64,000 nt of DNA, from contig OZ220744.1 of the NCBI GenBank assembly GCA_965116925.1, forward strand, positions 2,048,001-2,112,000, in the 5' to 3' direction. The DNA is from Candidatus Poribacteria bacterium. Lineage in GTDB: Bacteria; Poribacteria; WGA-4E; PCPOR2b. Positions 1-55,993 of this stretch are shown in pieces. The notes under the pieces are model-generated. The model was not told where the DNA came from. It worked only from the letters and a program-made list of their open reading frames with translations, and made no database searches. Every line of letters starts with the position of its first letter. Within the stretch, counting starts at the first letter, position 1. A program made the translations under genes and the position numbers.

Positions 1-591
1 GAAGATAAACAGAACAACATACGTCGCCATGACGTTTGCCATGATGCCGAAGATACCCGCCTGGCTGAAAAAACTGTATTCAAAAATCCGGCGTAACGGG
101 AATCCTTTGTGGGCGATGACAGACGGCATTGATTGACCAAATAGGGCGTACATAATCCCGACCGCCGCGATTATGGTCAGGGCCCAACCGACTGTCCGCC
201 GGCTATACTCAAGGCTCAAAATCACCGCCACCGCCCCAACGCATACATCGAGTTGGCTGTATGCTCCCGCCCGATCTGCAAGCGTTTTGTACTCGACAAT
301 CCAGTATCCAATCACGAAGATGGTTAAACAAACTAGTATCAAGTCGGTTACCGACGGACGAGATTCAGGTGAGCTACGCCTGAACTGATGGAACATACCG
401 GTCAAAACGAATGTGAGGAGCAAGTACAATCCGACGTGATACTGCTCACCCGATGTTCCGAAACCTGCACCGTAGATGTAAAAGCACACAAAGCCGACAG
501 CTATAATCTCAAAGATCCACTTCCATATACCTTTCAGATCCCGACCCGAGCGTTCAAATTTCTGCAACGGTTGCGTTTCTATGTTTGCCAT
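1..591 (-). CDS. TRAP transporter fused permease (DctQ-DctM 4TM/12TM type), N-terminal part; runs off the window start
   Basis: Not in ORF track. Manual translation from ATG at 591 (RBS GGAAGGAG): MANIETQPLQKFERSGRDLKGIWKWIFEIIAVGFVCFYIYGAGFG...LEYSRRTVGWAL...AHKGFPLRRI...GIFGIMANVMATYVVLFIF. Open to base 1, with motifs typical of fused TRAP permeases. Confidence 0.85.
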   Translation of the reverse strand, partial: MANIETQPLQKFERSGRDLKGIWKWIFEIIAVGFVCFYIYGAGFGTSGEQYHVGLYLLLTFVLTGMFHQFRRSSPESRPSVTDLILVCLTIFVIGYWIVEYKTLADRAGAYSQLDVCVGAVAVILSLEYSRRTVGWALTIIAAVGIMYALFGQSMPSVIAHKGFPLRRIFEYSFFSQAGIFGIMANVMATYVVLFIF

Positions 592-646
592 CTCCTTCCA
601 TGCCTCTCAAACCGACAAGTGCAAAAATTTGCATTACATAACGCTA

Positions 647-1552
647 TCACGATGTACGCCGCCGTAATTCAGCTTCAAGTCGGCGAATCCGCTCCTCCGC
701 CTCAACGCGGGCTCGGGCTTCTTCGGCGGCGTGGTTTTCTGCCTCAACACGGGCTTGGGCCTCTTCGGCGGCGTGATTTTCTGCCTCAACGCGGGCTCGG
801 ACTTCTTCGGCAGCGTGGTTTTCTGCCTCAACACGGGCTTGGGCCTCTTCGGCAGCACGAGCCGATACATCAACATAGTTTTGTATCAGATTACCCGTTT
901 CATCATAACAAACAAGATTTTCGTCCTCCAAGCTCAACCAGATGTTGACGGGTTCAATCCAGAGCCAGCCATCCGCATTGGGACTCAACTCCTCATAGCC
1001 ATCCGGTGTCAGACGGTATCCCACCAACGCTCGCTCCATTACCCCCTGTCGCTCAAATCGATCCACGATGATGTAATTCAGTACGCCGACCCGTGCATAG
1101 TGGTCAACCTTCGTAACAACATCAGTTGAGCGGGTTGAAGGCGAGACGATTTCGATAATCAGGCTTGGCTTGGTTTCCTCATCTTCCTCTGAAAAGGTAC
1201 TCCAATTGATATGCCGACGGAGGTTAAAAATCACCGAAATATCAGGTCCATGCGCTCTTAGATCGGGTAGTGCCCACGCTACACGTACATCGTGCAAGAC
1301 TACAGCGTTCGGCTCATCCACAATCCGGGCTGACAATACATTGTAGAGATAGTTACAAAATCGTTCATGTTCTTCGTCGTGCATTCGGTAATCTCCCACC
1401 TGTGGGTGAAGGATATCCTCAAGTGTTAGAGGCGTCCGTTCTAGGACCTCTGTTCCGTCTGCCAAAGTCCGCATTGCTTCACGCCACCCGTAGGGATAGG
1501 GGTCTTTCTTATCAAGAATTTCTCCGTTGGTTGGAATGGTTACTATTTTCAT
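647..1552 (-). CDS. Uma2 family (PD-(D/E)XK-like putative endonuclease) protein with repetitive coiled-coil tail
   Basis: Motifs HGPDISV, LIIEIVSPST, D..TKVDHYARVGVLNYIIVD; C-terminal (ARVEAENHAAEEAQ)-type repeats. Confidence 0.85.
   Translation of the reverse strand: MKIVTIPTNGEILDKKDPYPYGWREAMRTLADGTEVLERTPLTLEDILHPQVGDYRMHDEEHERFCNYLYNVLSARIVDEPNAVVLHDVRVAWALPDLRAHGPDISVIFNLRRHINWSTFSEEDEETKPSLIIEIVSPSTRSTDVVTKVDHYARVGVLNYIIVDRFERQGVMERALVGYRLTPDGYEELSPNADGWLWIEPVNIWLSLEDENLVCYDETGNLIQNYVDVSARAAEEAQARVEAENHAAEEVRARVEAENHAAEEAQARVEAENHAAEEARARVEAEERIRRLEAELRRRTS
699..856. repeat. 42-bp in-frame tandem repeat (~3.8 copies, alternating A/B units) in the Uma2 3' end
   Basis: GCCTCAAC recurs at 699, 741, 783 and 825; units 1/3 and 2/4 share diagnostic bases. 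Confidence 0.95.
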
Positions 1553-1593
1553 GGCGATCTCCTTCCCTTAGTGGGTAATAACTCACAAGTCCG

Positions 1594-3165
1594 TTAGCGA
1601 TAATAAATCGCAACTGTTACGTCCTTCAGTATTAACGGTTCACGCCTTATCGGTTGGGGGTTGACCTGTCGAATTTCTAGTTCGTTGATTCCTTTTGTCA
1701 GGGGTGGGCTGCCGATGTCGAATTCGATAGTGCCACCGGGGATTGACACCTTTTGGGTTCGAGATGGGTATCGGTTCCAGCCCTGTTCATACTCTGTGCG
1801 GGTCCTGTTGTCTGAGACAGCCACGCCGGTGTTCCAAGAAATCAATCCTCCGTTCAGTCGTATTTCAAACGTATCTGCAGCGGTTAGCCCCTCAAATCCT
1901 AGACCGAGTGTACATCGATTCAAAGCACTATCAGAAGTTGCCGATTCTAGGTCGTCAGCGATATCTAGCTGGAGGCTCACACCGCGGTCATAGAAGGTCT
2001 GATTAAACTGAACGGGAAGTTGTGCCGCAGGAATGGCGTTAAGGAAGGAATAGCCAAGTTGAGAGGTCGGTTGATGTCGATTGGAGTGATCTAACTCGTA
2101 GCACTTGTTTAACCGTTGTAGTGCTGCGGGATCAGCCAGTTGATTCAAGACATTTCGCTTCCAGTCGTTGGACATGCTATAGTAGTTAAAAAAGTAGATG
2201 CCATCTACGCCAGCCTCCCAGTACCGGAGCGCGAGTGCCTTCAGCGACTCTTCGTTCAGTAATGGTCTTAGCCCCTCAAAACAACCGTAGATTTTGCAAC
2301 CGGTTCCCTGGGCGGTTTCAACCCATTCCCGAATGGGCATCTCAAACGGGATGAATCCGCCACCTGCGATGAGCATGTCAACCATGCCCTCTTTTATCCA
2401 CACCTCGGTGTCGAGTCCGATTCTTTTAGAATCTGCCAGCGTCGGCGGCACACGCACAGCGAGATTGAGCGGCTTCCCCTTTTCTTGACTGACTTCGTCT
2501 AACTTGGTCCGAACACCGTGTACAAAGTCTGTCATTAGGTATCGGTACTGGTATGCCTCTGCGACGCGGAAGAAGGCGGGATGGCGCATAAAGTCCAGTT
2601 CAATGCCATCAATGTCGAAGCGTTCAATTAGCTCAAAGATAATCCGTGACATGTGGGTGCGCACTTCTGGAAATGCGTAGTTTAATCCAGTCCGTATGCC
2701 CCATTCGAGGCTTCCGTGCGGTATCGATTCTCCGGGGCGGCCGATGCACAGTTCCGGGTGATCACGGCGAAGGCGTCCGTAATTCGGAGCTGATTCCTCC
2801 ATGTCGTAATGCTCGTTCATTCTAACGGACGGGAAAAACGCCATACCCGCCTCATGGCACAGCTGCGAAATTACCGTCACCGGACCACCGTGTGCCCTAA
2901 TCATTTGGCGCAGATTTTCAGTCTTCCGCTGTTGCCCGGCGTCAAGGTCTTCATACCCGTCGCCGAATCGTTCTCCAACTTCGGTTTCGTAGTCGTAGAC
3001 TTCGTGCCCACCGATAGACCAGAGAAAAACATCAACCGGCGATCCAGCATAGGGGGCAATCATTTTGTCGCGCATATCGTCCGGGGTCAGTGGCGGCCCG
3101 TAGGTGCCCATTATCCAACCATCATCATTGCTGAGCACCCGCCAATACCTCTGGGAGGTTGTCAT
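1594..3165 (-). CDS. Glycoside hydrolase-like TIM-barrel protein (GHL10-like) with C-terminal beta domain
   Basis: N-terminal SNDDG, FFPSVRMNE, LNYAFPEVR, FDIDGIELDFMRH, GVDGIYFFNY motifs. Confidence 0.6.
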   Translation of the reverse strand: MTTSQRYWRVLSNDDGWIMGTYGPPLTPDDMRDKMIAPYAGSPVDVFLWSIGGHEVYDYETEVGERFGDGYEDLDAGQQRKTENLRQMIRAHGGPVTVISQLCHEAGMAFFPSVRMNEHYDMEESAPNYGRLRRDHPELCIGRPGESIPHGSLEWGIRTGLNYAFPEVRTHMSRIIFELIERFDIDGIELDFMRHPAFFRVAEAYQYRYLMTDFVHGVRTKLDEVSQEKGKPLNLAVRVPPTLADSKRIGLDTEVWIKEGMVDMLIAGGGFIPFEMPIREWVETAQGTGCKIYGCFEGLRPLLNEESLKALALRYWEAGVDGIYFFNYYSMSNDWKRNVLNQLADPAALQRLNKCYELDHSNRHQPTSQLGYSFLNAIPAAQLPVQFNQTFYDRGVSLQLDIADDLESATSDSALNRCTLGLGFEGLTAADTFEIRLNGGLISWNTGVAVSDNRTRTEYEQGWNRYPSRTQKVSIPGGTIEFDIGSPPLTKGINELEIRQVNPQPIRREPLILKDVTVAIYYR

Positions 3166-3452
3166 GTGAGGGTCTCCTTGAACGGCAATTCTTGTGCTTC
3201 TCTGTCCTTTAGAAATAAGATCGAGCGTTGGTCAATTATAACACGCGCTTAGTATTCCATCCATGAAAAAATGGGGATTCAACGAGAGGATGATGTATTT
3301 GCGAACCGCTTGGGGAAAGATTGAACATGGGGTGCTGATTGTGATATACTCATTGTTGTTGTGGAAGATCTGAAGTTATTCGGGAACCGTGAGTTAGATG
3401 AAGTTGGTTCGCACCTTCTTGTGAAACTACCGAGCCTACCAAACGGAAGATC

Positions 3453-3514
3453 GGTAGGTGTGGTTTGCAACCGCGCCGGCTTTGAAGTGTCTAAATAATT
3501 CTAAGATCTACTAT
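3453..3514 (-). repeat. Partial copy (inverted) of the MITE-like element at 5899-6006
   Basis: Reverse complement ATAGTAGATCTTAGAATTATTTAGACACTTCAAAGCCGGCGCGGTTGCAAACCACACCTAC aligns with 5900-5959. Confidence 0.8.
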
Positions 3515-3562
3515 TAGTATGTTACGCACTATATTTTTCGTTGATGGGAGAGTGAATAGATA

Positions 3563-5818
3563 ATGATGAAACCGTTTATGGAAACCTTGCCTCCTGAAGT
3601 AGATGTTAAACTGCAACGGATAAAACCGCCGGAGGAACAGGTCCTTTTCCAAGTCACTACAGATCTCATCAACGAGCAATCATTTGGAGAAAAATGGCTG
3701 ATTGCCACGGATCAACACTTGTTGTTTATACCAACTGAGAGTGTAGATGGCACTGTGGAAGTTCCGCTTTCAGCGGTGCAGGAAGCTAGAACAGAAGAAC
3801 TCGTTGGGGGAGGATGTCTCGCGGTAGAACGGAAGGAAGGGGAGCCGGTCTATCTACACTATTCTAGTTCATTGGCACCCAAGTTTGCTGAGATCGCCGC
3901 AGGTATTCAGCAGCTCTCCAAAGGGGAAACGCTCGAATTGCCTACAGAGATGGAGCGCACACGGTGTGAAAAGTGTGGACGTCTGCTCGCCGAGAAGGAT
4001 GGCAGATGTATTAGCTGTGCGAAGAAGCGGGACACATTCCGGCGGATTGTCAGCTACGTTAGACCTTATCGCTTTCAACTTGTACTCGTTTTTGTAATCA
4101 CGACAGTCGCTGCACTGATCGAGTTACTACCACCCCTTATCACACAGCGCATTATTGACGATGTTCTTACGCCGAAATCAAATTTTGGGCTTTTGGTCTG
4201 GCTTGCATTGGCACTTTTGGGGATTCGTCTATTGCTATGGCTATCCCAAGTGGGCCGTACAGCGATAAGTAGTTGGCTAGGGTTTCGAGCAGCGGAAGAC
4301 ATTCGCACTGAACTCTATCGTGTATTACAGTTCACACCTCTGAGATTTTACGATAAGCGAAAAGTCGGGAACCTCATCTCTCGAATGACTAACGATGCAG
4401 AACTTCTGGAGGAATACCTAATCTACGACCTGCCTTTCATCCTATCAAATGTGCTGCTGCTACTTGGCATCTTGACGTTGCTGTTATATAAAAGCTGGAT
4501 TCTCACTATATATGTGCTGCTGCCTGTGCCGCTGATTGTCTTGGGTGGAGCACTAATCTGGAATCGTATGGAGCGTTACTGGCGTCGTTGGTCTGTTAAA
4601 TGGGGACGGTTTTCAGCCCATTTGAACGAGTCAATCACCGGCATCCGATTGGTCAAAGCTTTTGCTCAAGAGAAACGAGAAGGGGCTCGTTTTAATCGCC
4701 GGAATGACGAACTGCGGCAGGTGAGCGTAAGTGCAGACCGGGCGTGGTTTGTGTTTTTCACGGTGATGAACTTTCTAATGAGTTTCGGCGTGTTCTTTAT
4801 CTGGTACTTTGGCGGACGACAGATCCTCGTCGGAGAATTGACACTCGGTGAATTGACAGCGTTTATCAGTTACCTCTGGATGCTCTACCGCCCCCTCAGG
4901 TGGCTTGGTGACTTCTACAACTTTATGATCCGTGCCTATGCGGGTGCAGAGCGAATCTTTGAGGTGATGGACACTCCTGTTGAGCCGTTCAACGCTCCGG
5001 AGGCGAAGGCTATGCCCCAACTCGAAGGACGGATAGCCTTCAAAGATGTTACATTTGGTTACGATCCGGGCAAGCCAGTGCTTAGGGGGATTAACCTTGA
5101 GATAACACCCGGTGAAATGGTTGGCTTGGTGGGTAAATCGGGGGTCGGCAAAAGCACTTTCATCAACCTAATCTGTCGATTTTACGATGTCGATCGGGGG
5201 TGTTTAGATGTTGACGGTGAAGATAGTCGGGACATCCGACTTGAAGATTTGCGTGGGCAGATCGGGATGGTCCATCAGGAACCGACGCTGTTTAATGTTA
5301 CGATTGCTGAAAATATCCGCTACGGCAAACCGGACGCAACATTTGCTGAGGTGATTCGTGCGGCAATAGCAGCAGAAGCGCATGATTTCATCGTTGCCAA
5401 GCCAGACGGTTATGACACAAAGGTTGGCGAACGTGGTGGGAAACTCTCCGGTGGGGAAAAGCAGCGTATCGCCATTGCACGCGCCATTCTGCATGATCCC
5501 AAAATTCTCATCCTTGATGAAGCGACCTCCTCGCTTGACACACCGACTGAGAAAAAGATTCAGATAGCGATTGCGCGACTGGTCAAAGGACGCACCACCT
5601 TTGCGATTGCCCACCGGCTCTCAACTCTACGGAACGCAGACCGGCTGGTTGTCTTGGATGATGGCAAAATTGCTGAGGTTGGTACACATGCGGAGTTGAT
5701 GGCACGGAAAGGTATTTTCTACCACCTCGTTCATACGCAGCAGACAACGACAGCAATTATGGCAGTTGGTGGTGGGAAGCACGATTCAGAAGATAACTCG
5801 GAAGACGATGATGAATAG
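3563..5818 (+). CDS. ABC exporter (fused TMD+NBD) with N-terminal extension containing a CxxC...CxxC motif
   Basis: Walker A GKSGVGKS, LSGGEKQR, ILDEATSSLD, IAHRLST; six TM segments; CEKC...CISC. Confidence 0.92.
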   Translation: MMKPFMETLPPEVDVKLQRIKPPEEQVLFQVTTDLINEQSFGEKWLIATDQHLLFIPTESVDGTVEVPLSAVQEARTEELVGGGCLAVERKEGEPVYLHYSSSLAPKFAEIAAGIQQLSKGETLELPTEMERTRCEKCGRLLAEKDGRCISCAKKRDTFRRIVSYVRPYRFQLVLVFVITTVAALIELLPPLITQRIIDDVLTPKSNFGLLVWLALALLGIRLLLWLSQVGRTAISSWLGFRAAEDIRTELYRVLQFTPLRFYDKRKVGNLISRMTNDAELLEEYLIYDLPFILSNVLLLLGILTLLLYKSWILTIYVLLPVPLIVLGGALIWNRMERYWRRWSVKWGRFSAHLNESITGIRLVKAFAQEKREGARFNRRNDELRQVSVSADRAWFVFFTVMNFLMSFGVFFIWYFGGRQILVGELTLGELTAFISYLWMLYRPLRWLGDFYNFMIRAYAGAERIFEVMDTPVEPFNAPEAKAMPQLEGRIAFKDVTFGYDPGKPVLRGINLEITPGEMVGLVGKSGVGKSTFINLICRFYDVDRGCLDVDGEDSRDIRLEDLRGQIGMVHQEPTLFNVTIAENIRYGKPDATFAEVIRAAIAAEAHDFIVAKPDGYDTKVGERGGKLSGGEKQRIAIARAILHDPKILILDEATSSLDTPTEKKIQIAIARLVKGRTTFAIAHRLSTLRNADRLVVLDDGKIAEVGTHAELMARKGIFYHLVHTQQTTTAIMAVGGGKHDSEDNSEDDDE

Positions 5819-5838
5819 CGTCATCGTGTGAAAGCCAT

Positions 5839-5868
5839 TTGACTTTTCTATAGAGCACTCAGTATAAT
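5839..5868 (+). promoter_or_regulatory. Putative sigma70 promoter upstream of the DUF1854-like gene
   Basis: TTGACT-18 bp-TATAAT. Confidence 0.55.
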
Positions 5869-5898
5869 GTGAATTCTTACTTCCCTACCGGAGCACAC

Positions 5899-6006
5899 TA
5901 TAGTAGATTTTAGAATTAATGAGACACTCCAAATCGGCGCAGTTGCAAACAGCACCTACCAAACATGGGGAACGAGAGTGTTCATTTATTTGTTGAATTC
6001 ACTATA
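5899..6006. mobile_element. 108-bp MITE-like element with TATAGT...ACTATA ends and an internal REP-like palindrome
   Basis: Left end TATAGTAGATTTTAGAATTAATGAGACAC versus reverse complement of right end TATAGTGAATTCAACAAATAAATGAACAC; second partial copy at 3453-3514. Confidence 0.7.
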
Positions 6007-6080
6007 AAATGGATAACATCACCTATCGCACAATTTTTGACGGCTCACTGAGTGATAGATATATTTGGATAACAACTTAG

Positions 6081-6674
6081 GTGACTACACTGGAGAATGT
6101 AATGGCATCTGAAGCGGAAAAAATTGAAACACCCACGGAGAGTGGAAAAGCAAAAACGGAGAGGACAATCACTCCCATTCAGGTAACCCATCCGGAACAT
6201 GTTGAGCCTGAAACGATTCGCCTATTCCGGGAACCGCCGTGGGTATTGCGGTTGACTATTGAGGGCGATCGTTCCTACCTCAAGGTTCGAGTGGTGTGCG
6301 CGGCCCCATTATCTCAACCCGATCGATACATCTGCTTTCTTGACGAAAAGAATGAGGTAATCTGTACAGTCGAAGATCCGATTGATTTAGACGAGGCATC
6401 TCAGCGGCTGATCAAAGAAGAGCTTGAGCAACGGTATATGACCGCCATTATCAAGCGGGTGGATTCGCTCAAGAGTGAGTTTGGTGTGTCCTATTGGGAG
6501 GTCCAGACTGACCGAGGGGACAGAGAGTTTGTCGTGCGAAATGTATCTGAGAACGCACAGTGGATTACAGACCGCCGGCTGCTGTTGCTTGATGTGGATG
6601 GCAACCGTTTTGAGATCTCCAACTTAGAGGTTCTCGATAAAAAAAGCCGCGGACTAATCGAAATGGTGCTCTAG
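6081..6674 (+). CDS. DUF1854 domain protein
   Basis: APLSQPDRYICFLD, LEQRY, WEVQTDRG, LLLDVDGNRFEI...LDKKSR; follows an ABC exporter. Confidence 0.8.
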   Translation: MTTLENVMASEAEKIETPTESGKAKTERTITPIQVTHPEHVEPETIRLFREPPWVLRLTIEGDRSYLKVRVVCAAPLSQPDRYICFLDEKNEVICTVEDPIDLDEASQRLIKEELEQRYMTAIIKRVDSLKSEFGVSYWEVQTDRGDREFVVRNVSENAQWITDRRLLLLDVDGNRFEISNLEVLDKKSRGLIEMVL

Positions 6675-6861: not shown

Positions 6862-7653
6862 ATGTATTTACCTGAAAACGATAAACTGTGTATGAAGACG
6901 GCACCTAGCCCCCCGGAAAACATGATACTGATACCTACTGGCAGGTTTGAGATGGGAAGCAACGATACTGAGCCTTTTTACGAGCAGCTTGTGCATACGG
7001 TGCATGTGGATGCGTTCTATATGGACACATATCCCGTGACAAATGTTGAATATCAGCAGTTCCTGATTGAAAATCCCGGTTGGCAGAAAGATCAGATTGA
7101 GGATGAGTTTCACGATGGTGACTACCTGTTGAATTGGGATGGTAATAACTATCCAGTGGGGAAGGCTAGCCATCCCGTTACTTGGGTGAGTTGGTATAGT
7201 GCGATGGCCTATGCTATGTGGGCGGGAAAGCGTTTGCCGACGGAAGCAGAATGGGAATACGCTGCACGCGGCGGGCTATCCGGCAAAAAGTACCCGTGGG
7301 GCGATTTGCTATCTAATGCGAAAGCGAACTACGACAGAAATGTTGGAGATACGACGGTGGTTGGTAAGTATCCCGCGAACGAATATGGTCTGTATGATAT
7401 GTCCGGGAATGTTTGGGAGTGGTGTCTTGATCTTTATGATGATGACTTTTACTTCACATCGCCTCGCAAGAATCCACGTTCAGGCACGAATGAACCAGAG
7501 TGGATCATAAACAACTTCATCGATATTACAGCTGAGCGTGTGTTGCGCGGCGGTGGTTGGAGTGCTTCACCACAAGGTCTCTGCGTCGCCCATCGCCTCA
7601 GGATTTTACCCATGAACACAACCTATGACTACGGTTTCCGTTGTGTGCATTGA
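6862..7653 (+). CDS. FGE-sulfatase (SUMF1/EgtB-like, C-type lectin fold) domain protein; stop codon supplied by the IS end
   Basis: FEMGS, PVTWVSW, RLPTEAEWEYAARGG, YGLYDMSGNVWEW, RVLRGGGW, GFRC; lacks the catalytic Cys pair of true FGE. Confidence 0.9.
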   Translation: MYLPENDKLCMKTAPSPPENMILIPTGRFEMGSNDTEPFYEQLVHTVHVDAFYMDTYPVTNVEYQQFLIENPGWQKDQIEDEFHDGDYLLNWDGNNYPVGKASHPVTWVSWYSAMAYAMWAGKRLPTEAEWEYAARGGLSGKKYPWGDLLSNAKANYDRNVGDTTVVGKYPANEYGLYDMSGNVWEWCLDLYDDDFYFTSPRKNPRSGTNEPEWIINNFIDITAERVLRGGGWSASPQGLCVAHRLRILPMNTTYDYGFRCVH

Positions 7654-7830
7654 CATACTCCCACACCCTAAAGGGTGGGGATTCTCGCCCGTTCCCAATA
7701 GGCTGTCGAATTGCTCTATCAACGAAGTTAGCCCGATGAACTGGGACTTACGACCTCTTCTGAGAGGGTAGATGCCCCTACCCTATGGATATTGATCGCC
7801 GCATTGCGGTCTCTATCCAACTGTGTGTGG
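7630..7830 (-). ncRNA. Putative TnpB omegaRNA/reRNA overlapping the tnpB 3' end and right end; guide about 7649-7630
   Basis: Established TnpB architecture; scaffold ends at TCAA with an upstream TTGA available for the pseudoknot. 5' boundary is approximate. Confidence 0.65.
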
Positions 7831-8882
7831 CAATTTGGACATTGCCATGTTCTATCACGAAGGTTCAACGCTTGATTAACGGCACCACAGGCGTGACAGG
7901 TGCGGCTTGATGGATACCACTTATCTATAAATCGGACTTCACGATTCTGTTTCTTAGAGTTAATATACTTCAGTTTCTGCACGAAATCATAGAATCCCAA
8001 ATCAGAGACCTTACGACCCCAAAGGCGTTTCATGCCCTTGATGTTGAGCGTCTCCAGTGAAATCCAATCATACTGGTCTGTCAGCTCATGCGCTAGCTTC
8101 CAGTGGAAATCTTGTCGCTGGTTGGCTATCCTACGGTGCTTGCGTGCAAGGTTGCGTCTGGCACGCTCACGGTTGTTTGAACCTTTAACCTTGCGTGAGT
8201 GGTTGCGGTTGGCGCGTTTGATAGCGTTGAGACTCCGTTTGAAAAATTGTGGAGCGTCATAGTCATTATAGTCAGAGCCGGTGAGATACCGCTTGAGTCC
8301 AAAATCGAACCCCGCGCTGTTACCCGTCGTCGGTCGATTCAAGGACATCTCTACATAATCTGTCAGAATGATTATCCACACGTCTCCAACGCTGTCCCGC
8401 TTCACCGTACACCGTTTGGGAGTGCCAAGTATGTCTTGGCTCTTAAAATACCGGTATATCCGCTTACCAATACGAATATAGTTACTCTGTAGCAGGTGCC
8501 AACCCGCTTGTTTGAGGGTGTAGGACTTGTAGCTGAACCGTTTCTTAAAGCGCGGAAGCCCCGAACGCTTACCACTTTTGCGGTCAGCGAACATTTGGGT
8601 GTACGCTTTATCCAGTCGGTCTATTACGTCTTGCAACGATTGACTCGGTAGCAAGCACCAATGAGCAAATCGGGAGAGCCTTTTCAATTTTGTCAGGTGC
8701 CGCATCAGCACTTTTTTGCCCGGATAATTGCCGTACATACCGTAGTACCGACGGCACAATGCCACAAAGTGATTCCACACCTGAGCATGGCTATCAATCG
8801 TTTTGTGCAATTCACGATTACCGTGATTGCTATACATTTTGAACTTGTAGGTTTTCACTGGAATCGTCTTTCTATCTTTCAT
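7728..8882 (-). CDS. tnpB: RNA-guided endonuclease TnpB
   Basis: KTYKFKMY, RuvC-I GFDFG, RuvC-II SLETL, zinc finger CHAC/CPNC, RuvC-III DRDRNAAINI; ATG at 8882 chosen because it lies downstream of the promoter. Confidence 0.95.
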   Translation of the reverse strand: MKDRKTIPVKTYKFKMYSNHGNRELHKTIDSHAQVWNHFVALCRRYYGMYGNYPGKKVLMRHLTKLKRLSRFAHWCLLPSQSLQDVIDRLDKAYTQMFADRKSGKRSGLPRFKKRFSYKSYTLKQAGWHLLQSNYIRIGKRIYRYFKSQDILGTPKRCTVKRDSVGDVWIIILTDYVEMSLNRPTTGNSAGFDFGLKRYLTGSDYNDYDAPQFFKRSLNAIKRANRNHSRKVKGSNNRERARRNLARKHRRIANQRQDFHWKLAHELTDQYDWISLETLNIKGMKRLWGRKVSDLGFYDFVQKLKYINSKKQNREVRFIDKWYPSSRTCHACGAVNQALNLRDRTWQCPNCHTQLDRDRNAAINIHRVGASTLSEEVVSPSSSG

Positions 8883-8952
8883 TGCCGGTTCAACAAGTGC
8901 GGGAGACACCACCGGGCGGTGGCGTGAACCTCTCCCACTGAAAGACAAATCA

Positions 8953-8981
8953 ACTATACCATATGCTATCTGCAAAATCAA
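8953..8981 (-). promoter_or_regulatory. Putative tnpB promoter
   Basis: Minus strand TTGATT-17 bp-TATAGT with extended TG. Confidence 0.5.
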
Positions 8982-9094
8982 CATCTTTTCACTTACTAAC
9001 GGGCTTTGGTGGGCTACATAGGCTTCGCCCCAATTGCTCCCAACCTAAAGGATGGGGCATTGCCCGCAACATTAGGTAACGTCTTAGGGCTTTA

Positions 9095-13932: not shown

Positions 13933-14005
13933 CTCTCCCGGACGGATTCGAACCGCCGACAAAGTGGTTAACAGCCACCTGCTCTACCAGCTGAGCTACG
14001 GGAGA
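13933..14005 (-). tRNA. tRNA-Asn (GTT), CCA not encoded
   Basis: TCTCCCGTAGCTCAGCTGGTAGAGCAGGTGGCTGTTAACCACTTTGTCGGCGGTTCGAATCCGTCCGGGAGAG cloverleaf; upstream TTGCAA..TATAAT promoter. Confidence 0.95.
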
Positions 14006-26176: not shown

Positions 26177-26250
26177 GTGCCTGTAGCTCAACTGGATAGA
26201 GCGTTAGCCTCCGGAGCTAAAGGTTGGGCGTTCGAGTCGCCCCAGGCACA
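26177..26250 (+). tRNA. tRNA-Arg (CCG), CCA not encoded
   Basis: GTGCCTGTAGCTCAACTGGATAGAGCGTTAGCCTCCGGAGCTAAAGGTTGGGCGTTCGAGTCGCCCCAGGCACA; TTGACA upstream. Confidence 0.95.
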
Positions 26251-54671: not shown

Positions 54672-55520
54672 TTATCCCCAACGCTGCTCCGGCGGGTCAA
54701 ATAAGAAACCGTGGAAGAGCTTACGTTGTTCTGGAGAAAGACGACTGTTGTAGAACCCTTTGGAATAGCCCCAATGCTCTTGGGAGGCGATCATCCACGG
54801 ATGTTCATAGGCATAGTAGAGCATGAACCGATACCCCTCCGTTTGGGTAAATGGTCCCGCTGAGTGCCAGAGGGCGTTGTGGAACAGGATTGCTGTCCCC
54901 GCAGGGGCGCAGATCTGCACCGCGCCGGGAAACAGGTCAGGACGCTGCAAATCATCTTGCGGTGGCTCGTATGTTGCTTTGTGGCTCGCAGGAACGACGC
55001 AGAGATTCCCCTGTCCGGGCGATGTCATATCGTTCAAGTAGTAGCCGATCTTGAGTTGGAGAAAGGGAATCGGTGCCCCAAGCCCACGGTATCCCTGATC
55101 GTGACCGTCAATATGCCACCCCATCCCTCGATGTGTTAGGTCGGTTTCATACTCGACGATAGCGTCGGAAGCGTGATGGTGTGGCATTTCATTGAATAGC
55201 CCCTTGACGTAAGGCATCATCGGTGACCAATCCAGCATCTCAAGGAACAGGGGATCGTCATCTAGGATATAGAAGATGCGGGTGCTTTTCTCGCCCTTAA
55301 TATCCGTCTTACCGGTATGGGGAATTTCTTTTTCCTGTTTTTCACGTCGCTGGGCTATCACGCGAAACAACGCCTCTCGGAGTTCGTTAACATGGCTTTC
55401 CGCCAAGAAGTTTTCCAGTACCAGATAGCCGTTATTGTCGAAAAAGAAACGCTCCGATTGTGTTGGCCCTGCTTCGTGTGCTGAGCACGATACCTGTGTT
55501 ACATTGTTTTCTGACATCAT
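54672..55520 (-). CDS. PhyH family dioxygenase
   Basis: WHID, VVPASH, LWHS. Confidence 0.88.
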   Translation of the reverse strand: MMSENNVTQVSCSAHEAGPTQSERFFFDNNGYLVLENFLAESHVNELREALFRVIAQRREKQEKEIPHTGKTDIKGEKSTRIFYILDDDPLFLEMLDWSPMMPYVKGLFNEMPHHHASDAIVEYETDLTHRGMGWHIDGHDQGYRGLGAPIPFLQLKIGYYLNDMTSPGQGNLCVVPASHKATYEPPQDDLQRPDLFPGAVQICAPAGTAILFHNALWHSAGPFTQTEGYRFMLYYAYEHPWMIASQEHWGYSKGFYNSRLSPEQRKLFHGFLFDPPEQRWG

Positions 55521-55526
55521 ATAGGA

Positions 55527-55860
55527 ACCTCTCCAATCTTAGTTATGTCAACTACCCCGCCCTGAAGGACGGGGTAGTTGATACCGTCCAACGGGACTTA
55601 CGCTTGGGCAATTATCTTACCCGTGACGCTACCTTGGTGCTTTGAAAAGCCCTAAGAGATAGCGCGGTTATGCGGCTCTGGCTCGTAACTTTACACACCC
55701 GCCACCGCACGGTCACAGCAACCGTTTAGAAGGATTGACCATGTAGCGGTGCTATCATGGTTTCACCTTCCGGGTGACACCTCAGACAAACCACACCTTT
55801 CACATTGAAGTGAGAAGGCAGCGAAAAACGAGCGTTTTTCCTAAGTCGTCGAGTTACGGC
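55527..55860 (-). ncRNA. Candidate stand-alone omegaRNA-like structured ncRNA
   Basis: Extended -10 TGATAGAAT at 55873-55865; many hairpins; ends at IS right end TTGAC followed by a putative guide. Confidence 0.5.
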
Positions 55861-55974
55861 ATATATTCTATCATACATTTACCTGAAAAGGGTAGGGCAG
55901 ATTACAAAAACAACAAAAAGGGGGCGCAGTTCCCTCATCGCCCTAACGGGTGAGGCTTCCACTGCGAAGATTTG
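55547..55974 (-). mobile_element. Non-autonomous IS200/IS605-derived element with no ORF, encoding a structured RNA
   Basis: Right-end palindrome GTCAACTACCCCG-CCCTGAAGGA-CGGGGTAGTTGA; left-end hairpin CCTCATCGCCCTAACGGGTGAGG enclosed by CGCAG/CTGCG; flanking GTGA (TCAC on minus). Confidence 0.75.
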
Positions 55975-55993
55975 GTGAATTTTGACGTACTCT

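Follow-up and report, generated by a model that had tools for sequence, protein, structure and literature searches.

A gene-less IS200/IS605 element of Poribacteria with a candidate stand-alone omegaRNA and an interlocked 5' domain

What an IS200/IS605 insert without a gene carries in its interior, and which protein it would depend on, are the questions raised by a 428-bp element (a PATE) of a sponge-symbiont bacterium. It is located on the minus strand at 55974..55547 of the window, the whole 64,000-nt stretch of Candidatus Poribacteria DNA analysed here. The description of this element as ORF-less in the original prediction holds. The longest stop-free frames inside it are 50 and 68 amino acids, too short for a transposase; translated interiors match TnpB at the common ends only, and no coding similarity was found that would mark the interior as a decayed tnpA or tnpB fragment. 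The element and its flanks comprise the following features.

55975..55979, minus strand: target motif TTCAC, which stays in the flank upon insertion, the predicted TAM; empty site TTCAC/ATAACT in genome G008; family consensus YTCAY, mostly TTCAT
55915..55974, minus strand: left end with a subterminal hairpin (55965-55925) and a T tract, common to tnpB and isrB-like elements
55865..55873, minus strand: extended -10 (TGATAGAAT), predicted start about 55859-55860
55728..55859, minus strand: 5' domain without a tnpB counterpart; covaries, similarity to whole tnpB elements at shuffle level, no Rfam family
55672..55727, minus strand: core, omegaRNA-homologous by alignment with tnpB 3' ends; compensatory changes
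55603..55669, minus strand: optional hairpin insert, missing from copies C and D and from many relatives
55547..55602, minus strand: right end and 3' scaffold (GTAAG.CCC segment, terminal hairpin, TGAC end), common to the cognate tnpB family; TGAC in 77/80 sites
55527..55546, minus strand: predicted guide in the host flank, placed by TnpB biology; 20/20 match at the G008 empty site
54672..55520, minus strand: host PhyH-family dioxygenase gene (context only), starting 26 nt past the right end; in 20/20 genomes of the genus

Boundaries, copies and distribution

The 5' border of the element is formed by TTCAC (55979-55975) in the flank, and its right end closes in GTTGAC. The near-terminal palindromes are of IS605 type, terminal inverted repeats are absent, and the ends are common to nine tnpB and three isrB-like elements. 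Insertion sites were collected from 162 core loci, 52 of which were dropped (ends unparsed or flanks short), giving 80 distinct left flanks; a few of these are orthologous, so their independence is incomplete. The proposed TAM, TCAC, is indeed retained in the flank, but the retained motif is five nucleotides long (TTCAT in 54 flanks, CTCAT in 13, TTCAC in 7 and another motif in 6). Beyond the right end the flanks are unrelated. Joined flanks align across the junction in the focal genome (G000) for 42 of the 80 sites, without duplication, and three show a 1-nt gap there. All 18 relatives read (19 fetched) have the focal site empty, and the empty site that had been predicted, TTCAC/ATAACTAAGATTGGAGAGGT, is present exactly in G008. 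Insertion is precise, 3' of YTCAY and duplication-free, and the element is multicopy and has both ends in common with the resident tnpB family. An intron reading was rejected, as the first flank base is variable and an open frame runs over the rebuilt junction in only 2 of 22 non-start sites. The predicted guide contains GGAGAGG (55534-55528), the ribosome site of the next gene. Self-targets (TAM plus a 10-nt match in G000) were found for none of the four guides of this genome, and chance likewise predicts none.

Four copies are present in G000 (identities 100, 88, 75 and 75%), and model R1 recovers the same four. By a 20-mer count, 45 are present in G002 and 23 in G004, with no control matches. 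Their sharp ends and variable flanks bear out the idea of a mobile RNA-only cassette, and strain-specific insertions attest to its mobility. With model R1 the RNA is found in 34 of 121 genomes, from 3 of 19 genera and 2 families. Pattern matches in GTDB fall in named Poribacteria in 103 of 108 cases; the other five, together with one viral and one metagenome match, show nothing of the element beyond the pattern and appear to be chance matches. One metagenome scan gave no match. All of these searches used exact patterns, by which distant homologues would be missed. Two close genomes with 46 and 20 copies have 6 insertion sites in common. One site-sharing pair (L129/L034) differs by 12.9%, yet each member has a ~1% paralogue, which suggests, from sequence identity, conversion or re-insertion.

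Several other arrangements were seen among the loci. One site is represented in two close genomes by L042 and L062, and the right flank of L042 is without ~18 nt beside the element, that is, the guide region. One copy (L014, G008:C1:3459553-3461364) is split by a 1.4-kb insertion sequence with a reverse frame of 421 aa; it was considered as an ORF-bearing parent and discarded, the insert being a separate transposase gene inserted in reverse. A parent with an internal ORF was also sought among 105 core loci, in which the tnpB matches are neighbours or common ends. Reduced forms on G000:C1 are an element of 53 bp made up of the ends only, two tnpB elements with internal deletions, and remnants consisting of the left end alone (4180769-4180821; 4409075; 5743461; 6122939-6123025; 350597). 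The only Rfam matches in the window are two tRNA genes, at 13933-14005 (minus) and 26177-26250 (plus).

Structure and make-up of the RNA

The helices of the RNA, all on the minus strand, are placed as follows.

5' domain: P1a 55857-55852; P2 55847-55845/55787-55785; P3 55840-55823, with loop GCTC
5' domain, continued: P4 55821-55791; P5a 55776-55772; P6 55771-55728
Core: hairpin P7 55724-55710; stem S2 55708-55704/55676-55672
Between P7 and the 3' strand of S2, pairing with the 5' domain: P5b 55700-55696; P1b 55690-55685; GAGC 55684-55681

The element RNA folds with z = -4.84, and none of 100 shuffles is as good. Our structure set comprises 36 diverse cores with 52 named pairs in 9 helices. 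In this set 93.7% of cells pair, compared with 80.9 +/- 0.6 in shuffles (0/500 reach the observed value) and 30-42% in slid controls; the structure was drawn from the tested sequences, so that both controls flatter the pairing score. Variation on both sides is seen in 27 of the 52 named pairs. In an unbiased scan of 17,376 column pairs, the 30 best include 10 of the proposed pairs (0.09 expected), and others among the best belong to the P4 stem and are absent from the named list. G-U exceeds A-C by 146 to 18, which identifies the minus strand as the RNA strand, so the covariation is on the strand that had been predicted.

Covariation is rich in P5, P6 and P7, while P1, P2, PK1 and S2 are nearly invariant among the 36 cores. 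Later or held-out homologues reveal compensatory changes in P1 (L235 and L237, partly by eye), in PK1 (L248-L251, by eye, as in L022) and in S2 (L232-L234, L246 and L248-L252, partly by eye). RNAalifold recovers P2, P7 and S2 only, prefers other pairings for GAGCC and CTCG, and sets GAGCC against GGC. Two alternative partners of GAGCC are conserved, the P3 loop and GGC; their joint change in L248-L251 hints at two states or a base triple. The core is compact and multi-pseudoknotted with near-invariant junction bases (CGA, GAGG and TAAA), and indels among copies are whole hairpins located in loops. In 58 of 80 ORF-less sequences, as against 9 of 40 tnpB sequences, the P7 loop pairs with positions -7..-5; the terminal pseudoknot of omegaRNAs could not be placed.

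The pairings listed in the original prediction fared differently. Three are supported: CGTAACT/AGTTACG as P1, GAAAAACG/CGTTTTTC as P3 and CCATG/CATGG as P6. The CGCTA/TAGCG hairpin exists here, but it belongs to the optional insert present only in some copies, and the outer part of the long terminal palindrome is particular to the focal copy. TCACC/GGTGA is kept in 12-29 of 31 sequences per pair and covariation prefers CACCC/GGGTG instead. The terminal pseudoknot with GTCAA falls away, as only 1 of the 23 sequences having letters there contains GTCAA.

These observations bear on the possibility that the element has decayed from a tnpB or tnpA element by internal deletion and has no RNA function under selection. 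Plain tnpB deletion derivatives exist in G000, and the text of PMC3119063 describes PATEs that can arise by deletion. However, the 5' domain has neither coding nor DNA similarity to tnpB elements, the indels remove or add whole hairpins, and compensatory changes extend across two families. The remnant reading is largely refuted by the covariation and appears highly improbable.

The RNA is composed of two parts. Its 3' ~180 nt score 61-85 against the omegaRNAs of same-ended tnpB elements, where shuffled maxima are 26-28; for the P7-S2 part alone, the number of shuffles (n = 500) scoring as well is 0 with T4, 3 with T2 and 24 with T1. Judged by these alignments, the 3' ~180 nt is homologous to the omegaRNA of the same-ended tnpB family and not to that of the tnpB element at 7650-9075 of the window. 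For the 5' 132 nt, alignment with whole tnpB elements gives scores like those of shuffles. On comparison of the available sequences, this ~130-nt part covaries strongly, pairs into the scaffold and is without a counterpart in tnpB elements or Rfam. Searches of Rfam 15 (IS605-associated RNAs, group I introns, ribozymes and riboswitches) returned no match at the gathering threshold for the element or for four deeper homologues, and model R1 detects no core in cognate tnpB elements.

The ISDra2 TnpB omegaRNA, as described in the text of Nakagawa et al. (PMC10097598), resembles our element in having a hairpin, a 4-bp stem followed by GG, a helix, a terminal hairpin and a 3' guide at the right end. 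Its core is 116 nt and its 5' part dispensable, in contrast to the element RNA, which is 180-444 nt long (median 309 in 96 cores) and has a 5' part that pairs into the core, so that the helix in the position of stem 3 takes its partner from the upstream 5' domain. By this analogy we infer that P7, S2 with GG and the terminal hairpin correspond to ISDra2 scaffold stems, the stem-3 partner being supplied by the 5' domain. Calling the RNA a new class, which the original prediction thought possible, goes too far for the whole molecule: an omegaRNA can be recognised in its 3' part, and elements that have an omegaRNA but no ORF are already published (texts of PMC10055086 and PMC10691335). The term fits the 5' domain only. 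The interlocked 5' domain and such elements of Poribacteria are undescribed in Rfam and in the literature searched, mostly the main text of open-access papers and including PMC12558985 and PMC13565253. The concept of a stand-alone omegaRNA is likewise in the literature; what appears new here is the interlocked 5' domain, which makes the element a variant form.

Could the 5' domain have a function that needs no TnpB, such as that of a self-processing ribozyme or of a switch that binds a ligand, with the omegaRNA part as passenger? The compact pseudoknotted core, its near-invariant junction bases and the two co-changing partners of GAGCC would suit such a role, and intact copies occur in G013, where the cognate TnpB clade was not found. 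On the other hand, no Rfam ribozyme or riboswitch matches, and every complete copy examined has kept the omegaRNA parts and both ends. To our knowledge the hammerhead, twister, pistol and group I cores, compared by eye, do not fit the 5' domain, which also counts against a ribozyme. We regard this alternative as quite unlikely.

A ~90-nt pseudoknotted leader stands ahead of many tnpB genes, of two families (for example G000:C1:3781729-3781817), with 18 further matches of model R2 in addition to L257-L284, and by eye one precedes the window tnpB gene (~8865-8945, minus strand). A pairing of 5-9 bp with varying sequence is found in all 16 aligned leaders, as a stem and not a pseudoknot in one or two, and the leader has no match in Rfam. 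Its topology is like that of the 5' domain by eye. Homology of the two was nevertheless set aside, as R2 matches 4/4 control leaders and no ORF-less 5' domain; R2 is a weak model and also failed on L235 and L237, where a leader-like region can be made out by eye. The subtype formed by these two loci appears by eye to have a tnpB-type leader and an extra hairpin domain before the core, making the RNA longer. In L081, L127 and L230-L234 an additional 5' domain upstream of the core repeats ~15 nt of the P4/P2 strand, a repeat which could permit an alternative fold.

Candidate partner elements, promoter and possible transcript

Nine tnpB elements of G000 (T1-T9, identified using Pfam; for example G000:C1:3780494-3781913) carry both ends of the ORF-less element. 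All nine TnpBs retain the D-E-D RuvC motifs; eight are uninterrupted and one is interrupted. This IS1341-type family is like the element in left end, target motif, P7 hairpin, S2 and the last ~55 nt, and differs from it in encoding a TnpB that overlaps its own omegaRNA. The window tnpB element at 7650-9075 had been thought to have the same ends, but it ends in TTAC..GTCAA, and it was rejected as partner: its protein is ~30% identical to that of T2, and its 3' 200 nt align with the element RNA no better than shuffles do. The shared CGTAAGTCCC, noted in the original prediction as a match that may be chance, occurs 22 times in the genome.

The cognate TnpB clade is present in 28 of the 34 RNA-bearing genomes and in 29 of the 87 RNA-lacking ones, counts that include kin and so are not independent; within genera there is no clear signal (19/20 versus 21/25 in g13). 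It has no match in 6 of the 34 RNA-bearing genomes, three of which (G003, G013 and G092) are single-contig. In G000 five Y1-transposase matches were found, none with the ends of the element, and a cognate tnpA was not found in this genome; G002 has intact tnpA-tnpB elements with a left end that is similar as judged by eye.

The promoter claim finds support in two observations: the extended -10 of the original prediction, TGATAGAAT, is present at 55873-55865, and it is conserved in the family. Of 50 representatives, 40 have TANNNT at a distance of 4-12 nt upstream of P1, extended by TG in 34; deeper relatives have TTGACA-17-TAGAAT. A consensus promoter scan of the focal copy gave no -35/-10 pair. 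In four RNA runs from two studies (sponge-associated or coded, unstranded, with contigs of relatives and no DNA control), contig depth is 316-6322 over 55663-55866, a range inflated by collapsed copies; it is 0.2-68 across the promoter and left end and 0-196 in the flanking genes, with a step near 55866. Only stretches with RNA cover were counted as evidence. These depths weakly suggest that the element RNA is abundant in sponge metatranscriptomes.

Three isrB-like elements of G000 (RRXRR, no HNH match, 335 aa) use both ends in reverse orientation relative to the tnpB and ORF-less elements.

G000:C1:3899974-3901244, isrB-like element, ends reversed
G000:C1:5282407-5283679, isrB-like element, ends reversed
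G000:C1:1985115-1986410, isrB-like element, ends reversed

The reversed ends raise the possibility that the functional RNA is on the opposite strand, as a 5'-guide omegaRNA for these same-ended IsrB-like proteins. Like the ORF-less elements, isrB-like elements stand at start codons (3/3 in G000; 7/10), and the RNA runs give no strand. However, the excess of G-U over A-C and the promoter point to the minus strand, the interior aligns with tnpB omegaRNA, and the HEARO score is 14.6 bits (cut-off 83), from a match to the end hairpin only and on a strand that the strand test opposes. An opposite-strand RNA is therefore very improbable.

Placement at start codons and a possible mode of life

Read on the opposite strand, the commonest target motif, TTCAT, becomes ATGAA. 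A frame of at least 90 aa starts at the target motif on that strand in 57 of 79 sites (G000 background 15%), and an anti-Shine-Dalgarno motif is found in 48 of 79 guides (background 10%); for non-disruptive sites, defined by a crude gene call, the two backgrounds are 16% and 15%. These 57 ORF-less insertions lie between a host ribosome site and its start codon, compared with 12 of 44 tnpB elements (35 parsed of 39 fetched, plus 9 in G000; Fisher p = 1.8e-6), so that the tnpB family is far less often so placed. The focal copy is an exception, being upstream of the PhyH gene and co-directional with it. The placement may reflect a preference in targeting, or else the retention of copies whose imprecise loss would delete start signals. 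L116 and L119 stand at the start codons of two genes (left flanks), which, to judge from their first residues, may be ribBA and carA. Housekeeping genes seem to tolerate an element at the start codon.

On another reading the RNA would bind TnpB as a decoy, or would be an antisense regulator of the host, its 3' tail being the complement of the ribosome-binding site that serves the gene it usually precedes. The frequency of start codons and anti-Shine-Dalgarno guides above background, the lower frequency for tnpB elements and the apparent abundance of the RNA are in its favour. However, insertion sites vary between genomes, unlike those of a domesticated regulator, the element parts the ribosome site from its start codon, and the focal copy is arranged otherwise. 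We therefore consider a decoy or antisense role unlikely.

The explanation we favour, and consider probable from the sequence comparisons, is a PATE with a stand-alone omegaRNA that would be loaded in trans by TnpB and guard its site after excision, following the retention model in the text of PMC10055086. The TnpA of an autonomous relative would mobilise the element as single-stranded DNA. The internal sigma-70 promoter would yield a scaffold of ~313 nt plus the flanking guide, and TnpB from the same-ended tnpB elements would bind the 3' part (P7, S2 and the terminal hairpin). After excision the complex would cut the empty site (TTCAC plus guide), and repair from the sister copy would restore the element. 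The 5' domain would provide the partner strand of the helix in the stem-3 position (P5), close the RNA (P1) and contribute a pseudoknot; with stem 3 strand-swapped, the TnpB-binding surface may differ. The experimental case for a stand-alone trans-acting omegaRNA reportedly concerns IscB, with a 5' guide; the guide of our element would be 3' and TnpB-type, and its scaffold is extended.

Related elements have been described. According to the preprint text of Meers et al. (PMC10055086), PATEs of G. stearothermophilus often encode omegaRNAs that need TnpB in trans. The PATEs of Dyall-Smith et al. (PMC3119063) and of PMC10055086 share with our element, as far as the main texts describe them, the lack of an ORF, near-terminal IS605-type palindromes, no inverted repeats and no target duplication. 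Some haloarchaeal PATEs are core deletions with fused ends in the text of PMC3119063, from which our element differs by its promoter and a lineage-old, covarying ~130-nt domain that is not of tnpB. The stand-alone omegaRNAs of Altae-Tran et al. (PMC10691335), whose role that text calls unknown, are likewise mobilised, without effector or transposase, and in genomes with compatible effector loci. TnpB normally excises its guide from its own mRNA, as stated in the text of PMC10278001.

For the 5' domain, the likeliest job, which we put forward tentatively on the basis of the structural model, may be to make the RNA stable and fold it in advance, so that it persists when it is not loaded during translation and can compete in trans for TnpB. 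Also tentatively, these elements may be a lineage of RNA-only parasites of tnpB transposons with a dedicated module: the multi-pseudoknot 5' domain would interlock with and stabilise the omegaRNA and switch it between two forms, one closed for storage and one that loads TnpB, the protein being taken in trans. The elements would survive best between ribosome site and start codon, where losing them imprecisely has a cost. SINEs take LINE proteins in a comparable way, as the element would take TnpB.

If this is true, the element would be a new structured RNA motif, and nature would offer in it a model of TnpB guides that are stable on their own; the design of guides could draw on such a naturally stabilised scaffold. 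The partners (T-family TnpB), the motif TTCAY and the empty sites are defined, so that loading in trans can be tested directly. Why the elements lie between ribosome site and start codon is a separate matter, one of target choice or retention of IS200/IS605 elements. For the family as a whole, the interlocked RNA may show adaptation to life without tnpB mRNA.
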